A DNA stretch of 7,186 nucleotides. Source: a virus. Taxonomy: Duplodnaviria > Heunggongvirae > Uroviricota > Caudoviricetes. Below the pieces are notes generated by a model that saw only the letters and a list, made by a program, of their open reading frames with translations, did no database searches and was not told the origin of the DNA. Location: IMG/VR virus record IMGVR_UViG_2778260995_000005; one strand, given 5' to 3'. The position numbers were made by a program, and so were the translations under genes. Shown here piece by piece: positions 607 through 7,186 of this stretch. Position 1 is the stretch's first letter. The number at the start of each line of letters is the position of its first letter.

Positions 607-2340
607 TTAAAGCGAGCGGATCCCATAGGACTCAATGTGGTCAGACAGCGTGTCTTCTTTCTCGTACAGCATGGCTCTGCCAACCGCCATAATCAGCGCA
701 ACTGCACCATCGATTTTGTTTTCCGCCTGCTCTTTGACGGGCTTCACCACATCATCGTTACCCGGAATGGTTTTGCCGACCACGTTGCCGATACACCAGG
801 TCATGATGGGATTGCCATCATGATGAAAGCGCCCCGATTCAATTGCCGCTTCCAGCTCTTTCATCGGGTCGGACATGTTGGTGTAGTTCTGAATGATAGT
901 GATGGGGTTCAGGTCTTCATCAGCAAGGTCATGTGAGAGCCCGGTCGCCCCGAAGGGGTCGATGGGTGACTCGCTGACCGGGCTGATTTTGTTCGCCGCT
1001 TTGGCCTCTTCGAGGATGTAGCGATAATCCACCTCCGCACCATCGGTAACGGTCAGAACGCCCATTTCCACCCATTTCTGAAAGCGTTCGGCTGTCCGGC
1101 GATCTTCATTTTTCTCGACGCTGTACACCGTGTCATACGGTACCCAGAAACGCGGGGCTACACTGTAGTAATGCGTTTTACCGTCAATCTCGCGGGTATA
1201 AAGTCGCGCCATGCTGTTCATATCCAGTTTACGCGCCAGGTCAAAGGCCAGAATGCACGGCTGCCCCTCGAACTGCTCAAGGGACAGTGATTTATCCTCG
1301 CAGCTCTGCCAGCTCACCAGGTTGAAATACGCCGAACGCGCCGACACCCAGATATTGAGGTGTTTTGTTTTAAAGACGTTTGCCAGACGGGCGTTATTTT
1401 TCGCACGCTGCTGCTGACTTAACAAAAATTCGCGATAAACCGACACGCCAATATTTGGATTGGCTTTTTCCAGCACCTGCGGGTCGGTCCAGTCGTCACC
1501 TTCATCAACGGTATAGATGATCCCGAACAGTTCATCGTTAGGCACCGAGCCGTTGAGCATCTCGATGACTTCCCGCCGTTTGTCGTAGCACGGCCCCTCA
1601 ATGTTGTACCCGGCGGTAGTGATAGCCCACATCAGTGGCTGACGTCGCGCCCCCATCCCGGTAAGCATCGTGGTGTAAAGCGCATCTGTGGCGTGCTCGT
1701 GATATTCATCCACCACCGCACAGTGGGGTGATGAACCATCACCGGGGTTACCGATCAGCGGTTCAAAACGCGCACCATCCTCCGGACGGTTCATGTTTGA
1801 GGCGTTAACCTCAATCCCGAACGCTTCCGTCAGCATGGGTGTGCGTTTACACATCAGTCTTGCCGGGCGAAAGACTTCCCATGCCTGTTTCTCTGTCGTG
1901 GCACCGGAATACACTTCCGCGCCGAACTCGTTATCACAGGCAAAACAATACAGGGCGACACCGGCAGAGATTGCCGATTTGCCGTTCTTACGGGGGATTT
2001 CGGTATACACCTCACGGAAGCGGCGCAGCCGGGAGCCTTTATTGACCCAGCCAAACGCGCAGCAGATCACAAAGAGCTGCCACGGCTCCAGCGTGATGGG
2101 CATCCTCTTAAATGCCCACTCACCCTTGGTGTGCGGCAACAGCTGAATAAATTTGGCGGCCCGTTCAGCCAGGTCCTTGTCGAAGCGGTAACGAAACGAC
2201 TTACTTTTTTCCGCCATCAGGTCATCAAGATGGCGCTGGCAGGCCTGAATCACAAACTGGCAGGCCACAATCTTTCCGCGCACGACATCACGGGCATACT
2301 GATTGGCAGCATTTACGTTGGGGTAAGATTTCCGGCTCAT
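607..2340 (-). CDS. terL: Terminase large subunit (HK97-like, Terminase_1 family)
   Basis: 577-aa ORF with a Walker-A-like motif ([10 protein letters not shown]) in the N-terminal ATPase region, and overall size and architecture typical of TerL. Its ATG overlaps the TerS stop as ATGA at 2340..2337. Confidence 0.95.
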
Positions 2341-2831
2341 GATTCGATGATTTTCAGAAACGGGTTAGTGGTTTTCTTCTGCCCCGCCAGGCCAATCAGA
2401 CGCTGACGGCTGCTGGGGTCGAGTCCGAGCATTGCCCCCGTGCTGCTCATCTCGGACTCCTGTTCTTTTTTGGCGGTCAGCTCCGGATTTTTGACCATGC
2501 CGCCCATTGCACCGGTGATGGTGTTGCCCTGTCTGGCAATATTTTTCACGGCACGTCGCCAGAACTCGTAGGCCACGCACCACCGCTCAAGCACCGCGAG
2601 GTCAGTCACGCACAGCAGGCCCTGACCGCAGAGTTCTTTAGTTGTCAGTTGCCACATGATCGTAGCGAGAGGGAGATCTTCTTCAGCGAACCACTCCGGT
2701 GGCTCAACACCTTTGATGGGCGTAAAAACAGGTTCATCTTTATTCAGGGCTCGCTTGCCGGGGTTTCCGGCCAGCGCCTTGCGCGCCGTTGGCTTGGGGC
2801 GACGCCCGGAACGCCCCGCCGTTCCAGCCAT
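2337..2831 (-). CDS. terS: Terminase small subunit (P27 family)
   Basis: N-terminus [34 protein letters not shown] resembles the P27-family TerS signature. Preferred start is ATG at 2831..2829 with AGGAG 8 nt upstream; the track's GTG at 2840 has no usable spacing to an SD. Translationally coupled to terL. Confidence 0.85.
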
Positions 2832-2861
2832 ATGCGGCACTCCTGGTTAAATTTCATTTTT

Positions 2862-2940
2862 CGCGGGTATAAAAAAACGATGGGGCGGGCAGTCCGGAAG
2901 ACGTCAGGTCACAGGGATTTGACCCGCCCCTCCCCTCTGG
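2862..2940. other. Candidate cos/packaging site: GC-rich inverted repeat with adjacent A-tract in the HNH-terS intergenic region
   Basis: Non-coding gap 2841..2956. It contains an 8-bp inverted repeat GGGGCGGG (2882..2889) and CCCGCCCC (2923..2930) flanking a 33-nt spacer with a GACGTC palindrome (2900..2905), plus an A7 tract at 2871..2877. In HK97-type phages cos lies between the HNH gene and terS. On the minus strand the same structure followed by a T-run could instead act as a terminator. Confidence 0.3.
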
Positions 2941-2956
2941 CAGTGGGAACTGGTTC

Positions 2957-3307
2957 TTACTTCAACCGTTCACGGGCCGTCTTCGCCTTATGACACGGCC
3001 AGCACAGGCTCTGCAGATTGCTGTCGGCATCAGTGCCGCCATGCGCTTTAGGGATGATGTGGTCAACGGTTTTCGCCTCACGTACCACACCACCACGCAG
3101 ACATAACTGACACAGTCCTTTGTCACGCTTGAGCACACGTTCACGGATAACATCCCATTTCGAACCATAACCGCGCTGGTGTCTGGACTGGCCCGGCTTG
3201 TATTGCTTCCAGCCTTCACTTTTGTGGCTTTCGCAATAGCCTGACGGGTCAGTTGTGGTATGGCGGCAGCCGCGAACACGGCAGGCTTTTGGGGTTCGTG
3301 GTGGCAT
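2957..3307 (-). CDS. HNH endonuclease (terminase-associated, HK97 gp74-like)
   Basis: Motifs CxxxGC...GYC near the N-terminus and CQLC...DHIIP...N...CWPCH at the C-terminus form a zinc-finger HNH fold. Preferred start is ATG at 3307..3305 (MPPRTPKACRVRGC...) with GGAG 5 nt upstream. The track's longer start at 3376 would read through the terminator hairpin and overlap the upstream gene's stop. Confidence 0.9.
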   Translation of the reverse strand: MPPRTPKACRVRGCRHTTTDPSGYCESHKSEGWKQYKPGQSRHQRGYGSKWDVIRERVLKRDKGLCQLCLRGGVVREAKTVDHIIPKAHGGTDADSNLQSLCWPCHKAKTARERLK

Positions 3308-3316
3308 GCTGGCTCC

Positions 3317-3341
3317 AATAAAAAGCCCCGCGACGCGAGGC
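3317..3341 (-). terminator. Rho-independent terminator downstream of the 67-aa membrane protein gene
   Basis: Minus-strand RNA reads GCCUCGC-GUC-GCGGGGC followed by UUUUUAUU. That is a 7-bp GC-rich stem with one G-U pair, a 3-nt loop and a U-run, about 30 nt after the stop at 3373. Confidence 0.55.
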
Positions 3342-3372
3342 TTAGACAGAAAAAACACCGGATAAGATCTGG

Positions 3373-3576
3373 TCATTCTTCCTTTTTAATAATGACTTCT
3401 CGAGGGCGCAATTGTTGGATAGCACGACAAATACAATATGGAATAACTGCCCATGCTACTCCCATTGCTGCACCTGCAGCCTGTTGTGGAGCACTCTGAG
3501 CACCGAAAACCCCGAGGATTCCTTCAATAAATCCAATAGCACTACACAAAAGACTGATGACCCAGAGAATTTTCAT
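3373..3576 (-). CDS. Hypothetical small membrane protein (67 aa, two predicted TM helices, glycine-zipper-like); moron
   Basis: ATG at 3576..3574 with AAGGAG 9 nt upstream. Sequence MKILWVISLLCSAIGFIEGILGVFGAQSAPQQAAGAAMGVAWAVIPYCICRAIQQLRPREVIIKKEE has two hydrophobic segments, a short polar linker and a charged C-terminus. GC is visibly lower than the flanking terminase and lysis genes. Preceded by a 117-bp AT-rich intergenic region and followed by an intrinsic terminator. Confidence 0.6.
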   Translation of the reverse strand: MKILWVISLLCSAIGFIEGILGVFGAQSAPQQAAGAAMGVAWAVIPYCICRAIQQLRPREVIIKKEE

Positions 3577-3693
3577 AAACCCAAACTCCTTTTAAATAAA
3601 CACATTACTAGGATAATTCTCATAAAATGTTAGTAAAGTATTTTCAGGAAAATAGCGTATCACTGCCTATTTTTGACACTGATGCTGGGATAA

Positions 3694-4068
3694 TTATTCC
3701 GATCGCTGGAGTTGCTCATGATGATACAGAGCGAGAATCAGGTCATAAGACCCTTGCCTGTCTTTGTAACCAGTTTTATCAACCAATTCAGCTTTACTGA
3801 TTCCGGGTAAATCAAGAATCAGATTCGCAACTTCAATTGCCCTTTGGTACAACTTACCGCCTTTTTTCTCCCCATGCAGTGGTTTTACATTCTTCAGGTA
3901 ACCGCTATCCGCCAGGGCGAGAAATGTTGCCCTTGGGCATATCTTCTTTCTTGACGATTCGCTTTCTGTAACCTCTGCGATAGCTGCATCCCATGCATCA
4001 CGAGGAGTCATTGAGCTATCAGCCACCAAATGATAAGCGATTAAAGCAACGTGAGCGTATTGAGACAT
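3694..4068 (-). CDS. Hypothetical soluble protein (~124 aa; 141 aa if the GTG at 4119 is used), unknown function
   Basis: ORF on the late-operon strand immediately downstream of Rz. Preferred start is ATG at 4068..4066 with GGAAG about 5 nt upstream; the GTG at 4119 overlaps Rz by 13 nt and lacks a good SD. No TM segment and no family I can assign. Lower GC than neighbours. Confidence 0.6.
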   Translation of the reverse strand: MSQYAHVALIAYHLVADSSMTPRDAWDAAIAEVTESESSRKKICPRATFLALADSGYLKNVKPLHGEKKGGKLYQRAIEVANLILDLPGISKAELVDKTGYKDRQGSYDLILALYHHEQLQRSE

Positions 4069-4106
4069 AATGCTTCCATATACAAAAATCTTATGATAAG
4101 ACTTTT

Positions 4107-4550
4107 CTAATATGAACACTGTGATCTCACATATTCTTGCAGGCCATTCAATTGGTTAGTTATGGTTTCGATGCGCTCTCTGAGAACGAAATAATCCCGT
4201 TGAGCGGTGTCAGTAAGTCTGGGGCTGGAAGCATCATCCACGCCGGAGGCGGCGGTGGTTTTATGCTTGTCCGGACAGACTGCTTTGACGTGCAGCCACT
4301 TACGACCAGCAGAAACATCAGCACGAAGACTTTCGATAGTCGCGTTAGCATCAGCAAGCTCCTTTGTGTATCTGGCGTCGAGTTCAGCTACATCATGTTG
4401 ACGCTTCTGCATGTCAGCGATGATGGATGTGGCTTTGTCGCGCTGTTCTTTGTAGGTCATGGCGTTATCACGGTAATGATTAACAGCCCATGACAGGCAG
4501 ACGATGATGCTGATAACCAGAGCGGAGATAATCGCGGTTACTCTACTCAT
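4107..4550 (-). CDS. Rz: Rz i-spanin (inner-membrane spanin subunit)
   Basis: [30 protein letters not shown]... closely resembles lambda/phage-21 Rz: N-terminal TM, coiled-coil periplasmic domain. ATG at 4550..4548 overlaps the endolysin stop as ATGA. The track's longer start at 4562 is rejected. Confidence 0.9.
4160..4351 (-). CDS. Rz1: Rz1 o-spanin (outer-membrane lipoprotein), embedded in Rz in the +1 frame
   Basis: [25 protein letters not shown]...KPPPPPAW...PLNGIIS has a lipoprotein signal with lipobox VVSGC and the proline-rich mature region typical of lambda Rz1. ATG at 4351..4349 with AGGAG 7 nt upstream; the track used a TTG two codons earlier. Lies entirely within Rz. Confidence 0.85.
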
Positions 4551-5044
4551 TGTTGCCCCCACAAACAGACTTCACGCTCAATCTCACGGCGAGTCATCAG
4601 CCCTTTCCATTGCTTACCGCCAGCGTATGTCCAGCGCCGTAGCTGATCACATGCGCCTTTGATATCGCCCTGGTTTATTTTGCGAAGAAGTGTCGATGTT
4701 CTGAAATTTCCAGCACCAACGTTGTAAACGAACGAGTAAAGAGCGCCGCGCGTTGTTTCCGGTATATCGACTTTGATGTACGGGTTAATTTGTCTGGCGA
4801 CAGTGGCAAGGTCTTTATTCAGGAGGGCTTTGCATTCTGCTTCGGTATACGTTTTACCGAGCATAATGTCTTTTCCGGTATGCCCGTAACATACAGTCCA
4901 TACACCAACGATATCTTTATATGGTATGTAGCTGACGCCTTCCAGACCATCGTTACCACTTGGGCCAGTGATTAACACAGATGCTATAGCAATAGCCCCG
5001 CCACCAATAGCCGCAGCAACGGCTTTTCGTAATGATGGAGGCAT
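4547..5044 (-). CDS. R: SAR endolysin (phage-21 R21-type lysozyme)
   Basis: N-terminal signal-anchor-release domain [28 protein letters not shown] followed by a T4-lysozyme-like catalytic region (LEG...KD...T). Near-identical by recall to phage 21 R21. Start overlaps the pinholin stop (TAATG). Confidence 0.95.
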
Positions 5045-5259
5045 TATTCACCTCTCGCAGCCTTGCGCTTATCTTCTTTAATCTTGAAATAAAGGTTTGT
5101 CAGGTACGTCAGCAGGCCAAATACCAGGCTACCCAGCACACCTATTGCTGCCCACTGTGAGGGCGTGACTTTATCGAGCAGCTGTAAAAACCAGTAGCCA
5201 GCACTGCCTGCGGAGGTGCCGTAGGCAATGCCCGTTGTTAACTTATCCATAGATTTCAT
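5044..5259 (-). CDS. S: Pinholin (phage-21 S21-type, class II holin) with dual-start motif
   Basis: [71 protein letters not shown] matches S21 by recall. Met1-Lys-Ser-Met4 gives the antiholin/holin dual starts. Two TMDs, the first glycine/alanine-rich and SAR-like. GGAGG 7 nt upstream of ATG at 5259. Confidence 0.95.
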
Positions 5260-5354
5260 AGCCTCACCTCCGCAAATAACGGATGGTGTACACGGTTCGG
5301 AACGAAGAGGAAAGGTATAGAAGTTACATTAGCGTAAGGCTTGAACATCTATTC

Positions 5355-5386
5355 AAAAAGAAAAACGCCAGCGATTATTCTGGCGT
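5355..5386 (-). terminator. Rho-independent terminator between the AraC-family gene and the lysis cassette
   Basis: Minus-strand RNA reads ACGCCAG-AAUAAUCG-CUGGCGU followed by UUUUCUUUUU: 7-bp stem, 8-nt loop, U-rich tail. It lies about 60 nt after the AraC-family stop and about 95 nt upstream of the pinholin ATG. Confidence 0.5.
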
Positions 5387-5447
5387 AGCTGAAAGCATCA
5401 TACAATTATCAAATACGAAAATTACAAAATCATTAAAACGCATCACG

Positions 5448-6179
5448 TTACATCATGTCTTTTTCTAAAAAAAATCTTGATGAATATTGATGGGGAGGAA
5501 CACCAAAATATCTTCTGAAAACACTCACAAAATATGACGTGTTTTCATAACCGCATATCTCAGCAACTTTTCCAACAGAATATAAATTGTAGCTTAATAA
5601 CCTTTCCGCCATCACCATTCGCTCTTCAAGAATTAACTTACTAAATGATAAGCCTTCGTGCTTTAATTTTCTTTTTAACAGACTTTCACTCAGATACAGT
5701 CTTGAAGATATATCACAAAGTCTCCATGCTGCAGATATATCCGTGTGAATAATAGCCTTAACTTTACTTCCTAAACTATTAAGACATCCAAATAAAAAAC
5801 TTTGCACTATTTTCTCTGAAGATAAGATAGCAAGACATGCAAGTGATATTTGATTTCTAACAAAATCCACAGTTCTGCCATCACAATTCAAGCATGCAAT
5901 CAAGTTCTTTAACAATGAAAAATCTTCACATTCCACCATCAAGTATGCCGGATAAAACCTTCTTACAGAAAAAGGTGAGAGTGTGTTGCTTTTAAAGAAA
6001 TCATTAACTGTTTTCTCTTCAACATCTATGATCATTACATGATCTATATTTGATGAAAAAAAATCTTTTAAATTGTAATCAATGAGAACAGCACTTCCTT
6101 TTTTAAACAAAATATCTTCTTTACCAATTCGGACATCAAACGAGTTCAACACCAAAATGATAGAACATATGTATGGCAT
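5448..6179 (-). CDS. AraC/XylS-family transcriptional regulator (AppY/PatE-like), AT-rich
   Basis: C-terminal paired HTH region (WRLCDISSRLYLSESLLKRKLKHEGLSFSKLILEERMVMAERLL...VGKVAEICGYENTSYFVSVFRRYFGVPPHQY) is typical of AraC family. N-terminus MPYICSIILVLNSFDV...ILFKKGSAVLI resembles AppY-like regulators by recall. Preferred start is ATG at 6179..6177 with AGGTGG 5 nt upstream; the track used a GTG at 6188. Markedly AT-rich coding sequence. Confidence 0.85.
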   Translation of the reverse strand: MPYICSIILVLNSFDVRIGKEDILFKKGSAVLIDYNLKDFFSSNIDHVMIIDVEEKTVNDFFKSNTLSPFSVRRFYPAYLMVECEDFSLLKNLIACLNCDGRTVDFVRNQISLACLAILSSEKIVQSFLFGCLNSLGSKVKAIIHTDISAAWRLCDISSRLYLSESLLKRKLKHEGLSFSKLILEERMVMAERLLSYNLYSVGKVAEICGYENTSYFVSVFRRYFGVPPHQYSSRFFLEKDMM

Positions 6180-6487
6180 ATTATCCACCTGATATCATTG
6201 GGGTTACACCAGGTAAGTATAGGTGGAAAATCAATATTCGCCAGTTCAACAATAAGGAAAATTTCATTGCATCACAAGTATAAAATTATGTATTTAACTC
6301 ACAAAGACAAATTATTAAACCAATCTGTTATATTATATATAGCTGCGTGGAATCATAATATTATATATTTTGACTGGCATGTTTACCAACTTTAAGTTGC
6401 ATCTCAATTGTTTCTTCAGCGTAAACAGAGTTTTTATACAAACTGACACTCTGGGTATCATAGTGTAGTTTTTACGATTGTAAATAT

Positions 6488-6518
6488 CCTGCATGCAGGA
6501 ACTCATCCTTTTGGATGA
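6488..6518 (-). terminator. Possible terminator/operator hairpins downstream of the DUF1722-like gene
   Basis: Two adjacent inverted repeats just after the stop at 6531: TCATCC-TTTT-GGATGA (6503..6518) and the 12-bp perfect palindrome CCTGCATGCAGG (6488..6499), followed on the minus strand by an AT-rich stretch. Short stems, so weak as a terminator; the palindrome could be a protein-binding site. Confidence 0.3.
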
Positions 6519-6530
6519 TATCGCATACAA

Positions 6531-7186
6531 TTAATTTACCATCAGTCTTAGAGCCAGTTCGTCCGGATAGGGATCGAAGTAATTCTGTGTAAGCAAGTAA
6601 TCATTAGGATACTCACCCAGATAATGCTTCAGCAGAGTCAACGGCGCAAGAAGAGGTAATGTGCCAGAACGATAGTTAAGTATAACCTCGCTCAACTCTT
6701 TACGCTGGCGTGTACTTAAGTAGTTACTAAAATACCCCTGTATATGCATCAGCACATTCGTGTGATTTTTACGTGATGCAGGTTTTCTGAGAATCGCCAT
6801 CAGCTTATCACGATACACCTCAAAGTATGATTCAAGGTCCGCCCACTCGTGTATTGCAGCCACAAATGGTCCCATATCTTTATAGCCTGCCTGACTATGC
6901 GCCAACAACTGAAGCTTATAACGACTATGAAAAGCTAATAACTCTCTTCTTGATAATTTCTCCTTGTAAAGGTGATTGAGCTCATGCAAAGCAAAAACTC
7001 TTTCAACAAAATTCTCACGAAGCACTGGATCATGTAATCGCCCATCCTCTTCAACCGGTAGCCAGGAAAACTTTTCCATCAAAGTACTCGTAAATAGTCC
7101 CACTCCATCGTAAGCGTAAACTGACCGCCGTATGTAGCCATCAGACGAGAATTGGTAACTTAGACGCCCATCTGATATAGACGGAC
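6531..7186 (-). CDS. DUF1722 (YbgA-like) domain protein, 5'-truncated by the window edge; possibly a DUF523-DUF1722 fusion
   Basis: The minus-strand frame is open from the window end (7186) to the stop at 6531..6533; the track's GTG start at 7103 is internal. The C-terminal region (LLAFHSRYKLQLLAHSQAGYKDMGPFVAAIHEW...YLLTQNYFDPYPDELALRLMVN) matches my recollection of the DUF1722/YbgA family. Moderately AT-rich. Confidence 0.55.
   Translation of the reverse strand, partial: PSISDGRLSYQFSSDGYIRRSVYAYDGVGLFTSTLMEKFSWLPVEEDGRLHDPVLRENFVERVFALHELNHLYKEKLSRRELLAFHSRYKLQLLAHSQAGYKDMGPFVAAIHEWADLESYFEVYRDKLMAILRKPASRKNHTNVLMHIQGYFSNYLSTRQRKELSEVILNYRSGTLPLLAPLTLLKHYLGEYPNDYLLTQNYFDPYPDELALRLMVN

Follow-up and report, generated by a model that had tools for sequence, protein, structure and literature searches.

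Two Apparently Independent Accessory Genes between the Lysis and Packaging Modules of an SfI/HK97-Type Lambdoid Prophage

The Locus and Its Two Genes

The window considered here is a stretch of 7,186 nucleotides from a tailed phage (Caudoviricetes; IMG/VR record IMGVR_UViG_2778260995_000005), in which all genes are coded on the minus strand. It carries, between the spanin genes Rz/Rz1 and the packaging genes, two small genes of low GC content, designated gene A and gene B, which are the subject of this work. The host element of the locus is an SfI/HK97-type lambdoid prophage of Escherichia coli; 861 bases around the locus are 99.9% identical to Shigella flexneri phage SfI, and 100% identical to prophages in several E. 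coli chromosomes. An initial annotation, made from the sequence alone, had recognized at this junction a soluble protein of about 124 residues and a two-transmembrane (TM) protein of 67 residues, and had proposed that they form an accessory system. Both open reading frames (ORFs) are true genes. At the three codon positions, the minor-allele fraction is 0.07, 0.04, and 0.32 in gene B and 0.055, 0.037, and 0.114 in gene A, and homologues are numerous for both. The locus itself is not new: it is sequenced and annotated in SfI and in RefSeq, the two protein families are catalogued, and morons at this junction are textbook knowledge.

Gene A runs from ATG 4068 to the stop at 3694 (124 residues), with the Shine-Dalgarno (SD) sequence GGAAG 5 nt upstream. 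Its longest ORF has 141 codons, starting at GTG 4119 and overlapping the Rz stop, but RefSeq and the family profiles begin at residue 18 of this ORF, which is ATG 4068. The locus as first delimited is real; its end at 4119 corresponds to the GTG and has to be moved to the true start. Gene B runs from ATG 3576 to the stop at 3373 (67 residues) and is preceded by the SD sequence AGGAG at 3590..3586, so that each gene does have its own SD, as had been noted. The AT-rich spacer of 117 bp between them was also correctly described (3693..3577, 30.8% GC), as was the intrinsic terminator placed just before the HNH gene, whose ATG is at 3307. This terminator has a 9-bp stem with six GC pairs at 3343..3323, followed by TTTTTATT.

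Both genes had been said to be more AT-rich than their flanks. Gene A has 44.8% GC (40% at third codon positions, GC3) and gene B 43.6% (GC3 27.9%). Set beside the packaging genes (54-58% GC in the HNH and terminase genes), both are clearly richer in AT, but only modestly so beside the lysis genes (48-50%).

Gene A Encodes a DUF6979 Protein

Gene A encodes a full-length member of the Pfam family DUF6979 (PF22399), with a score of 98.5 bits for a cut-off of 27 and an expectation (E) value of 4e-28. The match covers residues 18-137 of the 141-residue ORF over profile positions 1-126 of 127, and no difference from the family was found. In PHROGs, the protein matches phrog_5039 (E 1e-68), and RefSeq names it a DUF6979 family protein. 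As gene B likewise belongs to a catalogued family, phrog_12304, the earlier statement that neither protein can be assigned to a family does not hold; the statement that neither has a known function does, since both families are uncharacterized. DUF6979 is without assigned function, solved structure, or literature, and a search for DUF6979, phrog_5039, phrog_12304, and the RefSeq accessions found no paper mentioning them. The SfI genome paper does not discuss the ORFs of either gene.

The family is large, with 235 clusters at 50% identity in an exhaustive search (E up to 1e-3) and 548 clusters at 90% identity in a profile search (E up to 1e-5). It is represented in many bacterial phyla and in the archaeon Methanoculleus, and nearly all members are single-domain proteins of about 125-135 residues. 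In a 70-sequence alignment, the invariant residues are W26, K42, C44, L52, G56, and L95, all of which gene A possesses, and the K-x-C-P-[RK] motif is kept (K42, C44, P45, R46). A search for domain fusions found that the longer proteins have only N-terminal extensions and no second domain; an apparent fusion of 1629 residues proved to be a spurious match.

The AlphaFold2 model computed from the same alignment is all-helical, with seven helices, a predicted local distance difference test score (pLDDT) of 92, and a predicted template modeling score (pTM) of 0.87. When the sequence profile was compared with the PDB, only chance matches to caspase-4 were obtained (E > 0.1), giving no structural assignment. 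DUF6979, thus, has a confidently predicted fold for which no structural relative was found. No match to gene A exists in PADLOC-DB 2.0 or NCBIfam.

The 3' end of gene A is mosaic. Its match to lambda-like phages stops at query position 443, i.e., window position 3742 (megablast), and past this joint, the final 16 residues differ from those of E. coli phages that lack gene B. The protein of the window ends in DLILALYHHEQLQRSE, and that of the latter phages in DIALTLAQHGLLQRPQ.

Gene A and Gene B Do Not Form a Conserved Pair

The proposal of a two-gene unit implies that the genes occur together; the initial annotation had itself named a lack of such co-occurrence as a ground for refutation, and this is where it fails. 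Among 5426 complete E. coli genomes, DUF6979 is present in 248 and gene B in 52, leaving 196 genomes with DUF6979 and without gene B. All 52 copies of gene B are at least 99% identical and all stand next to DUF6979, and they therefore represent one lineage. A wider set of 97 gene B loci, from 17 species-representative genomes and 80 IMG/VR records, was searched with the DUF6979 hidden Markov model over 6 kb on each side. DUF6979 adjoins gene B in 18 of these loci, which are only those whose gene B is 99-100% identical to that of the window, and in none of the remaining 79. One of the latter, an Enterobacter-type prophage (L074), has a DUF6979 gene 2.2 kb away, across the lysis cassette; the other 78 have none within the 6 kb.

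Conversely, DUF6979 occurs without gene B in the lambda-like phages 4A7, mEp460_4F5, D2, 1W, and 3W, in Salmonella prophages, where a KilA-N gene then follows, and in E. coli prophages with lambda-type terminases. No other conserved partner of gene B was found among its neighbors, the upstream ORFs falling into 50 clusters and the downstream ones into 33. Certain lineages do have a local partner, namely phrog_1848 (175 residues) in Pantoea, phrog_914 (111 residues) in Buttiauxella, and phrog_13007 (114 residues) in Morganella. It is very probable that gene A and gene B are two independent, independently mobile genes and not a two-component system, a judgement that is made jointly with that on gene B as an autonomous cassette, discussed below. 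As they are not paired, the locus should not be catalogued as a two-gene defense system.

Genomic Position and Expression of Gene A

In enterobacteria, gene A is tightly bound to its position. Among the 49 fetched enterobacterial loci whose DUF6979 copy is at least 66% identical to that of the window, the gap between the Rz stop and DUF6979 is of 38 nt in 46 (44 of 47 viral contigs and two Salmonella prophages), and the junction is nearly identical in Salmonella. This 38-nt junction (4069..4106) holds a near-perfect palindrome, TCTTATCATAAGA.

No terminator was detected between Rz and gene A by signal scanning. A sigma-70 scan, scoring hexamer matches to the consensus with a cut-off of 9 of 12, found no promoter upstream of gene A, nor any minus-strand site at this cut-off over 2800..5500. 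Due to the fixed 38-nt gap and to the lack of both a terminator after Rz and a promoter at this cut-off, gene A looks like a passenger of the late transcript. Most likely, it would be expressed along with the lysis genes, from the Q-dependent late transcript, and would not be a moron expressed in the lysogen. The moron architecture that had been attributed to both genes is, thus, retained for the cassette of gene B, by comparison across contexts, and not for gene A, which has no promoter of its own at 9 of 12 matches or better.

In lineages without gene B, a terminator of the GCCTCGC..GCGGGGC type is found within about 25 nt after DUF6979. The shared form is GCCTCGC-loop-GCGGGGCTTTTT, located at 3316..3343 in the window and around 25 nt past the DUF6979 stop in the loci L144-L164 and L016. 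The GCCTCGC..GCGGGGC terminator may be a recombination joint for the exchange of cargo.

More distant DUF6979 genes (28-39% identity) are located directly 3' of a Q-like antiterminator gene, some of them sharing 4 nt with the start of an endolysin or holin gene; others precede a ParDE pair or separate Rz from a lambda-type terminase. For example, in seven loci (L179, L181, L183, L189, L191, L194, and L195), DUF6979 starts 1 nt after the Q-like gene, and two of these (L179 and L189) also have a 4-nt overlap of DUF6979 with the following lysis gene. In such an arrangement, the usual late promoter/qut region cannot fit between Q and the lysis genes. The family is also found away from lysis genes, as a standalone chromosomal gene, in an integrase/AlpA island with GmrSD-type restriction genes, in a region with ImmA-like and transposase genes, and in an archaeal integrated element. 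DUF6979 can be read as general mobile-element cargo, which in lambdoid phages fills the two cargo slots flanking the lysis cassette. As a side observation, two near-identical Enterobacter-type prophages (L005 and L006, 300..3035) differ between Q and the holin gene: one has a Pyocin_S-DNase bacteriocin with its immunity gene, and the other a DUF6979 gene directly upstream of an orphan colicin/pyocin immunity gene.

Gene B as a Mobile Cassette

Gene B and its flanks were aligned from 14 diverged contexts, and the motifs and terminators were counted over 57 distinct contexts. In the 14 aligned contexts, homology extends from about 10 nt 5' of a TTTACT hexamer to the T-run of the terminator, and the flanks beyond these limits are unrelated. 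Within the cassette, TTTAC and the TTAT..T of TATCCT are invariant, while the 16-nt spacer between the hexamers varies and the synonymous sites of the ORF vary freely. The motif TTTAC[TA]-N16-TAT[CT]CT is present in 32 of the 57 contexts, and TTTACT-16-TATCAT in six more, always ending 30-33 nt before the ATG. A GGAG SD is found in all 14 aligned sequences, shifted by 1 nt in three of them. A hairpin terminator follows gene B in 43 of the 57 contexts; its GCCTCGC/GCGGGGC stem is conserved and its loop varies, and in one copy, a change in the stem improves pairing.

With 8 of 12 matches to the sigma-70 consensus, the promoter-like element TTTACT-16-TATCCT was missed by the 9-of-12 scan and was found by comparison only. 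If it acts as a promoter, as its sequence suggests, transcription of gene B would start near 3603, and the element would presumably be active in the lysogen.

Gene B, thus, has the appearance of a self-contained moron, in which a promoter-like element, an SD sequence, a 67-codon ORF, and a terminator very probably move together. The features that define morons (Juhala et al. 2000; PMC3594210) are a deviating base composition, a presence/absence pattern among related phages at the same site, a terminator of their own, and a promoter of their own that is active in the repressed prophage. For gene B, base composition deviates (GC 43.6%, GC3 27.9%, and 30.8% for the spacer, against 54-58% for the HNH and terminase genes), the gene is present in 52 E. 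coli genomes against 248 for the Rz-DUF6979 module, and a hairpin with its T-run is located at 3343..3316. As regards the promoter, the candidate element, with its 8 of 12 matches, keeps both hexamers and the distance between them unchanged in diverged contexts.

The insertion sites are diverse. The commonest is 3' of the spanin genes and 5' of lambda-type or HNH/P27-type terminases, beside unrelated lysis cassettes. In Pantoea, gene B is located between the tail chaperone and tape measure genes, the very site of HK97 gp15, and in Morganella and in Edwardsiella phage Edno5, it lies directly 3' of the tape measure gene. In Ewingella, it adjoins icd; the element there is decayed, and phage structural genes are absent from the vicinity.

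The homologues of Pantoea and Buttiauxella (L027-L029, L034, L037, and L038, around 5000-6700) have no terminator. The ORF that directly follows or overlaps them encodes a secreted or lipoprotein-like product (175 residues, phrog_1848, or 111 residues, phrog_914), and an inverted repeat, TTAGGA-ttat-TCCTAA, lies 5' of gene B. This form is a distinct two-gene version of the cassette, and possibly a regulated one.

The Gene B Protein and Its Homologues

The gene B protein matches phrog_12304 from end to end (1-67 of 67, E 2.1e-44), a family without annotation and without a Pfam, NCBIfam, or PADLOC model. No family was found for it in Pfam or NCBIfam, and PADLOC-DB 2.0 gave only a chance-level match to PycC (E 0.026, 12 bits), so that the PADLOC check suggested with the initial annotation returned nothing for either protein. 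Neither protein matches a structural or lysis protein family. In particular, no holin or antiholin family of Pfam or PHROGs matches gene B at E < 0.1, the lone weak match being T4SS_pilin (E 0.059).

Homologues form 45 clusters. Among Enterobacterales, they are found in Enterobacter, Rahnella, Ewingella, Kluyvera, Pantoea, Yersinia, and Morganella, and remote relatives (38-58% identity) occur in Pseudomonas, Dokdonella, Tahibacter, Caulobacteraceae, Gracilimonas, Chryseobacterium, Vicinamibacterales, and Bryobacteraceae. A tblastn search of 50,697 phage records retrieved only SfI and Edno5, and no homologue was found among the plasmids of PLSDB.

AlphaFold2 predicts a helical hairpin (helices 2-24 and 29-56, with a four-residue turn; pLDDT 87.6), in agreement with the Kyte-Doolittle profile. 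The turn is uncharged, and the C-terminal tail QQLRPREVIIKKEE is charged and basic; by the positive-inside rule, this points to an N-in/C-in topology, in which the four-residue turn would be periplasmic and the tail cytoplasmic. The core SAPQQAAGAAMG-AWAVIPYC is invariant in the alignment of close homologues, and conservation across phyla is centered on the putative periplasmic turn and helix 2.

Comparison with Known Systems

The closest parallel in general design is HK97 gp15, a moron-encoded protein for which superinfection exclusion has been demonstrated (Cumby et al. 2012, as reported in PMC3594210). HK97 gene 15 is the founding moron, at the site used by the gene B of Pantoea. Both proteins are small and of the inner membrane (62 residues for gp15, 67 for gene B), and both genes form a short AT-rich cassette with its own terminator inside the late operon of an HK97-type phage. 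The two nevertheless differ in architecture, gp15 having one TM helix and a soluble helix and gene B a predicted two-helix hairpin, and in standing, exclusion being demonstrated for the former and guessed for the latter. Homology of gene B to HK97 gp15 (gp15/YebO family) was considered and rejected, the hhalign probability being about 1% over 7 aligned columns.

Other exclusion proteins resemble gene B in their inner-membrane action, which for gene B is a proposal. T4 Imm is a small membrane protein (PMC11436027). Neither it nor P22 SieA shows similarity to gene B, whose tblastn search of the 50,697 phage records retrieved only SfI and Edno5. In addition, Imm is made early in infection by a lytic phage, and not from a prophage.

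As regards the slot, the lambda bor/lom-type morons of the Rz-cos junction are similar, being extra cargo that brings its own signals and is inserted between lysis and packaging genes. Lambda bor is a lipoprotein gene on the opposite strand. In contrast, gene A and gene B share the strand of the late operon, and neither product is a lipoprotein. In lambdoid phages, the lysis cassette is flanked on both sides by classic cargo hotspots, e.g., for stx and bor, and the junction had rightly been called a hotspot.

Class II holins (pinholins such as S21) share with gene B two TM segments, the N-in/C-in orientation proposed above, a charged tail, and a location near the lysis cassette. Two TM segments and a charged tail are necessary for such a holin, but far from sufficient. 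Unlike these holins, gene B has no family match and is an autonomous cassette also present away from lysis genes; moreover, the phage already has an S21-type holin.

Proposed Explanation and Alternatives

The explanation that is favored, and considered probable as a whole, is that two accessory genes, unrelated to each other and independently mobile, are stacked between the lysis and packaging genes. Gene B is followed by a terminator of the kind that, in lineages without gene B, Salmonella included, is located directly after DUF6979. The simplest account would be that recombination put the gene B cassette between DUF6979 and its terminator. Gene A would provide a small cytoplasmic all-helical protein, its gene welded 38 nt behind Rz and read from the Q-dependent late transcript. 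For its mechanism there are weak leads only, toward lysis timing or toward DNA binding and counter-defense. Gene B would be made constitutively in the lysogen from its own promoter, and also from the late transcript. Its product would insert in the inner membrane and act on a membrane partner through helix-helix contacts, by means of the conserved turn and the invariant face of small residues on the helix that comes after it. The effect would be to interfere with genome entry of superinfecting phages, in the manner of HK97 gp15, T4 Imm, and P22 SieA. That gene B performs superinfection exclusion in the lysogen is a tentative suggestion, which may well prove wrong.

A bolder reading, on balance doubtful and to be taken as a whole, would make gene B the founder of a widespread, unrecognized prophage family of two-helix inner-membrane proteins. 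This family, with the core SAPQQAAGA...IPYC, would range from Enterobacterales to Bacteroidota and Acidobacteriota and target a conserved step at the inner membrane, e.g., by closing the channel through which incoming phage DNA passes. Usually the final or penultimate gene ahead of cos, and read from a sigma-70 promoter of its own, gene B would be expressed in lysogens as well as at a very early stage after injection. DUF6979, for its part, would have an orphan fold and a real role late in phage development.

Several points weigh against the explanation of two stacked accessory genes or against the roles proposed within it. The exclusion proposal draws on an analogy of size, membrane location, and insertion sites, and gene B shows no homology to HK97 gp15 or any annotated exclusion protein, by hhalign or in PHROGs, PADLOC, and the phage records. 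Expression in the lysogen is suggested by a promoter-like element with only 8 of 12 matches. This conserved element could be a regulatory site of another kind, and the Pantoea and Buttiauxella copies do have an inverted repeat upstream. As homology to the phages without gene B breaks inside the 3' end of gene A, the A-B junction may be inherited as one piece here, which leaves room for a lineage-specific functional link. Finally, that DUF6979 recurs beside lysis genes could reflect a function in lysis, in which case it would be more than hotspot cargo.

The last two points bear on two rival readings. A single accessory or defense system, with DUF6979 as soluble sensor and gene B as an effector depolarizing or blocking the membrane on infection, would be consistent with two adjacent genes on one strand without a terminator between them, never found apart in the SfI-like lineage (all 52 E. 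coli genomes with gene B and 18 IMG/VR loci), and with a mosaic joint that makes the 3' end of gene A, the spacer, and gene B one inherited block. It is, however, very unlikely, because the co-occurrence fails outside a near-clonal lineage (gene B at least 99% identical; none of the 79 other loci, and 196 genomes with DUF6979 alone). Besides, a promoter-like element and a terminator accompany gene B wherever it is found, PADLOC has no match, and elsewhere the neighbors of DUF6979 are different (KilA-N, ParDE, a colicin immunity gene, GmrSD). A role in lysis deserves more weight, and is still rather improbable. DUF6979 would be a cytoplasmic regulator of lysis timing, like T4 RIII or P1 LydB, and gene B, or both proteins, would be holin- or antiholin-like and tune the S21-type pinholin. 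The position of DUF6979 against several unrelated types of lysis cassette, either at 38 nt from Rz or next to a Q-like gene and overlapping the endolysin or holin gene by 4 nt, fits such a role, as do the class II holin outline of gene B (two TM segments, N-in/C-in, charged tail, Ala/Gly-rich second helix) and its most frequent location 3' of spanin genes. Yet these flanks are established cargo hotspots, and DUF6979 is also found far from lysis genes, on its own in a chromosome, in the integrase/AlpA island with GmrSD, and in the archaeal element. Gene B, for its part, has no holin or antiholin match in Pfam or PHROGs, has its own promoter-like element and terminator, and is also present in tail operons and beside icd in a decayed prophage.

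For each gene taken alone, one further alternative has been weighed. DUF6979 could be a nucleic-acid-binding or counter-defense factor, a small helical protein with a helix-turn-helix-like half, whose target in the cytoplasm would be host DNA, phage DNA, or an immune protein of the host. This would be compatible with two stacked accessory genes and in keeping with the wide distribution of the family in bacteria and archaea, and with its presence in defense or mobile-element islands beside GmrSD-type restriction and ImmA-like genes. It is nonetheless unlikely, as no domain fusion or conserved partner gene was found for DUF6979, and a late-operon position is unusual for such genes. Gene B could be a small membrane toxin, either type I toxin-antitoxin-like or a single-gene abortive-infection effector, kept in check by an antisense RNA or by low translation; it is indeed small, hydrophobic, and AT-rich, with its own promoter-like element and terminator, and is carried by mobile elements. 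The signal scan, however, found no promoter-like site on the opposite strand near gene B, no Rfam family reached its threshold (none was near its gathering score over 3200..4250), and the SD sequence is strong. Most type I toxins have fewer than 60 residues and one TM helix, which a protein of 67 residues and two helices does not resemble, and conservation in the periplasmic turn and helix 2 suggests a specific partner and not generic membrane damage. The toxin reading is, thus, most improbable, and the stack of two unrelated accessory genes remains the preferred explanation.

Significance

Current understanding is not overturned, and the main practical result is that this locus should receive no entry as a two-gene defense system. 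What is new is the evidence that the pair is, very probably, not a system, and the definition of the gene B cassette at the base level, together with the distribution of gene B across phyla and insertion sites and the confident predicted fold of DUF6979, for which no structural relative was found. If gene B does act in exclusion or modifies the envelope, a compact and easily cloned family of 67 residues would join the short list of inner-membrane proteins that protect lysogens, and the highly conserved periplasmic turn would point to a specific, possibly universal, membrane target. Being defined to the base, the cassette offers a clean test case for the movement of morons. DUF6979, an orphan predicted fold that recurs beside lysis genes, is a reasonable target for a small functional study.

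Feature Coordinates and Neighboring Genes

The coordinates of all features are collected in Table 1. The HNH endonuclease gene opens the packaging module and belongs to the flank, outside the cargo; in SfI, it is the final gene ahead of cos. Its start past the terminator, with GGAG before the ATG, is indicated by both RefSeq and the sequence. A mechanical ORF list gives it 139 residues from 3376, overlapping the gene B stop (ATGA), while the real start is ATG 3307.

Table 1. Features of the window around the lysis-packaging junction, in order of transcription.
Feature	Position	Strand	Evidence or remark
YbgA/DUF1722 gene	runs past the window end	-	first in transcription order
AraC-family regulator	6188..5448	-	32% GC
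S21-type holin	5259..5044	-	Pfam
Lysozyme	5044..4547	-	
Rz	4562..4107	-	embedded Rz1 at 4357..4160
Rz-to-DUF6979 junction, 38 nt, with SD GGAAG	4069..4106	-	sequence and signal scan
Gene A, soluble, 124 residues, DUF6979 (PF22399, phrog_5039)	3694..4068	-	Pfam, PHROGs, AlphaFold2, RefSeq
Mosaic joint, 3' end of gene A	3694..3742	-	homology to E. coli phages without gene B breaks
Spacer, 117 bp, 30.8% GC	3577..3693	-	promoter-proximal half belongs to the gene B cassette
-35-like hexamer TTTACT, gene B cassette	3632..3637	-	comparison across contexts
-10-like hexamer TATCCT, gene B cassette	3610..3615	-	ends 33 nt before the ATG
SD AGGAG of gene B	3586..3590	-	sequence
Gene B, predicted two-helix inner-membrane protein, 67 residues, phrog_12304	3373..3576	-	PHROG, AlphaFold2, alignment
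Intrinsic terminator AAGCCTCGC-GTC-GCGGGGCTT and T-run	3316..3343	-	3' end of the gene B cassette
HNH endonuclease gene	2957..3307	-	Pfam HNH, E 3e-16; RefSeq coordinates
P27-type small terminase	2840..2337	-	
Large terminase	2340..607	-	

A second, larger block of low-GC cargo occupies the slot between Q and the holin gene (5365..7186, minus strand). Its AraC regulator is YdeO/GadX-like (E 3e-37, under the equivalog cut-off), and the regulator gene is closed by a terminator of its own, at 5386..5365. Prophages of enterohemorrhagic E. coli carry AraC-like regulators, such as PatE and PsrA/B, that govern acid resistance and virulence. The block also includes the YbgA/DUF1722 gene cut off by the window end; in E. 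coli C4, a lipocalin gene lies beyond it, and in SfI, the slot is occupied instead by tRNA-Asn and tRNA-Thr.

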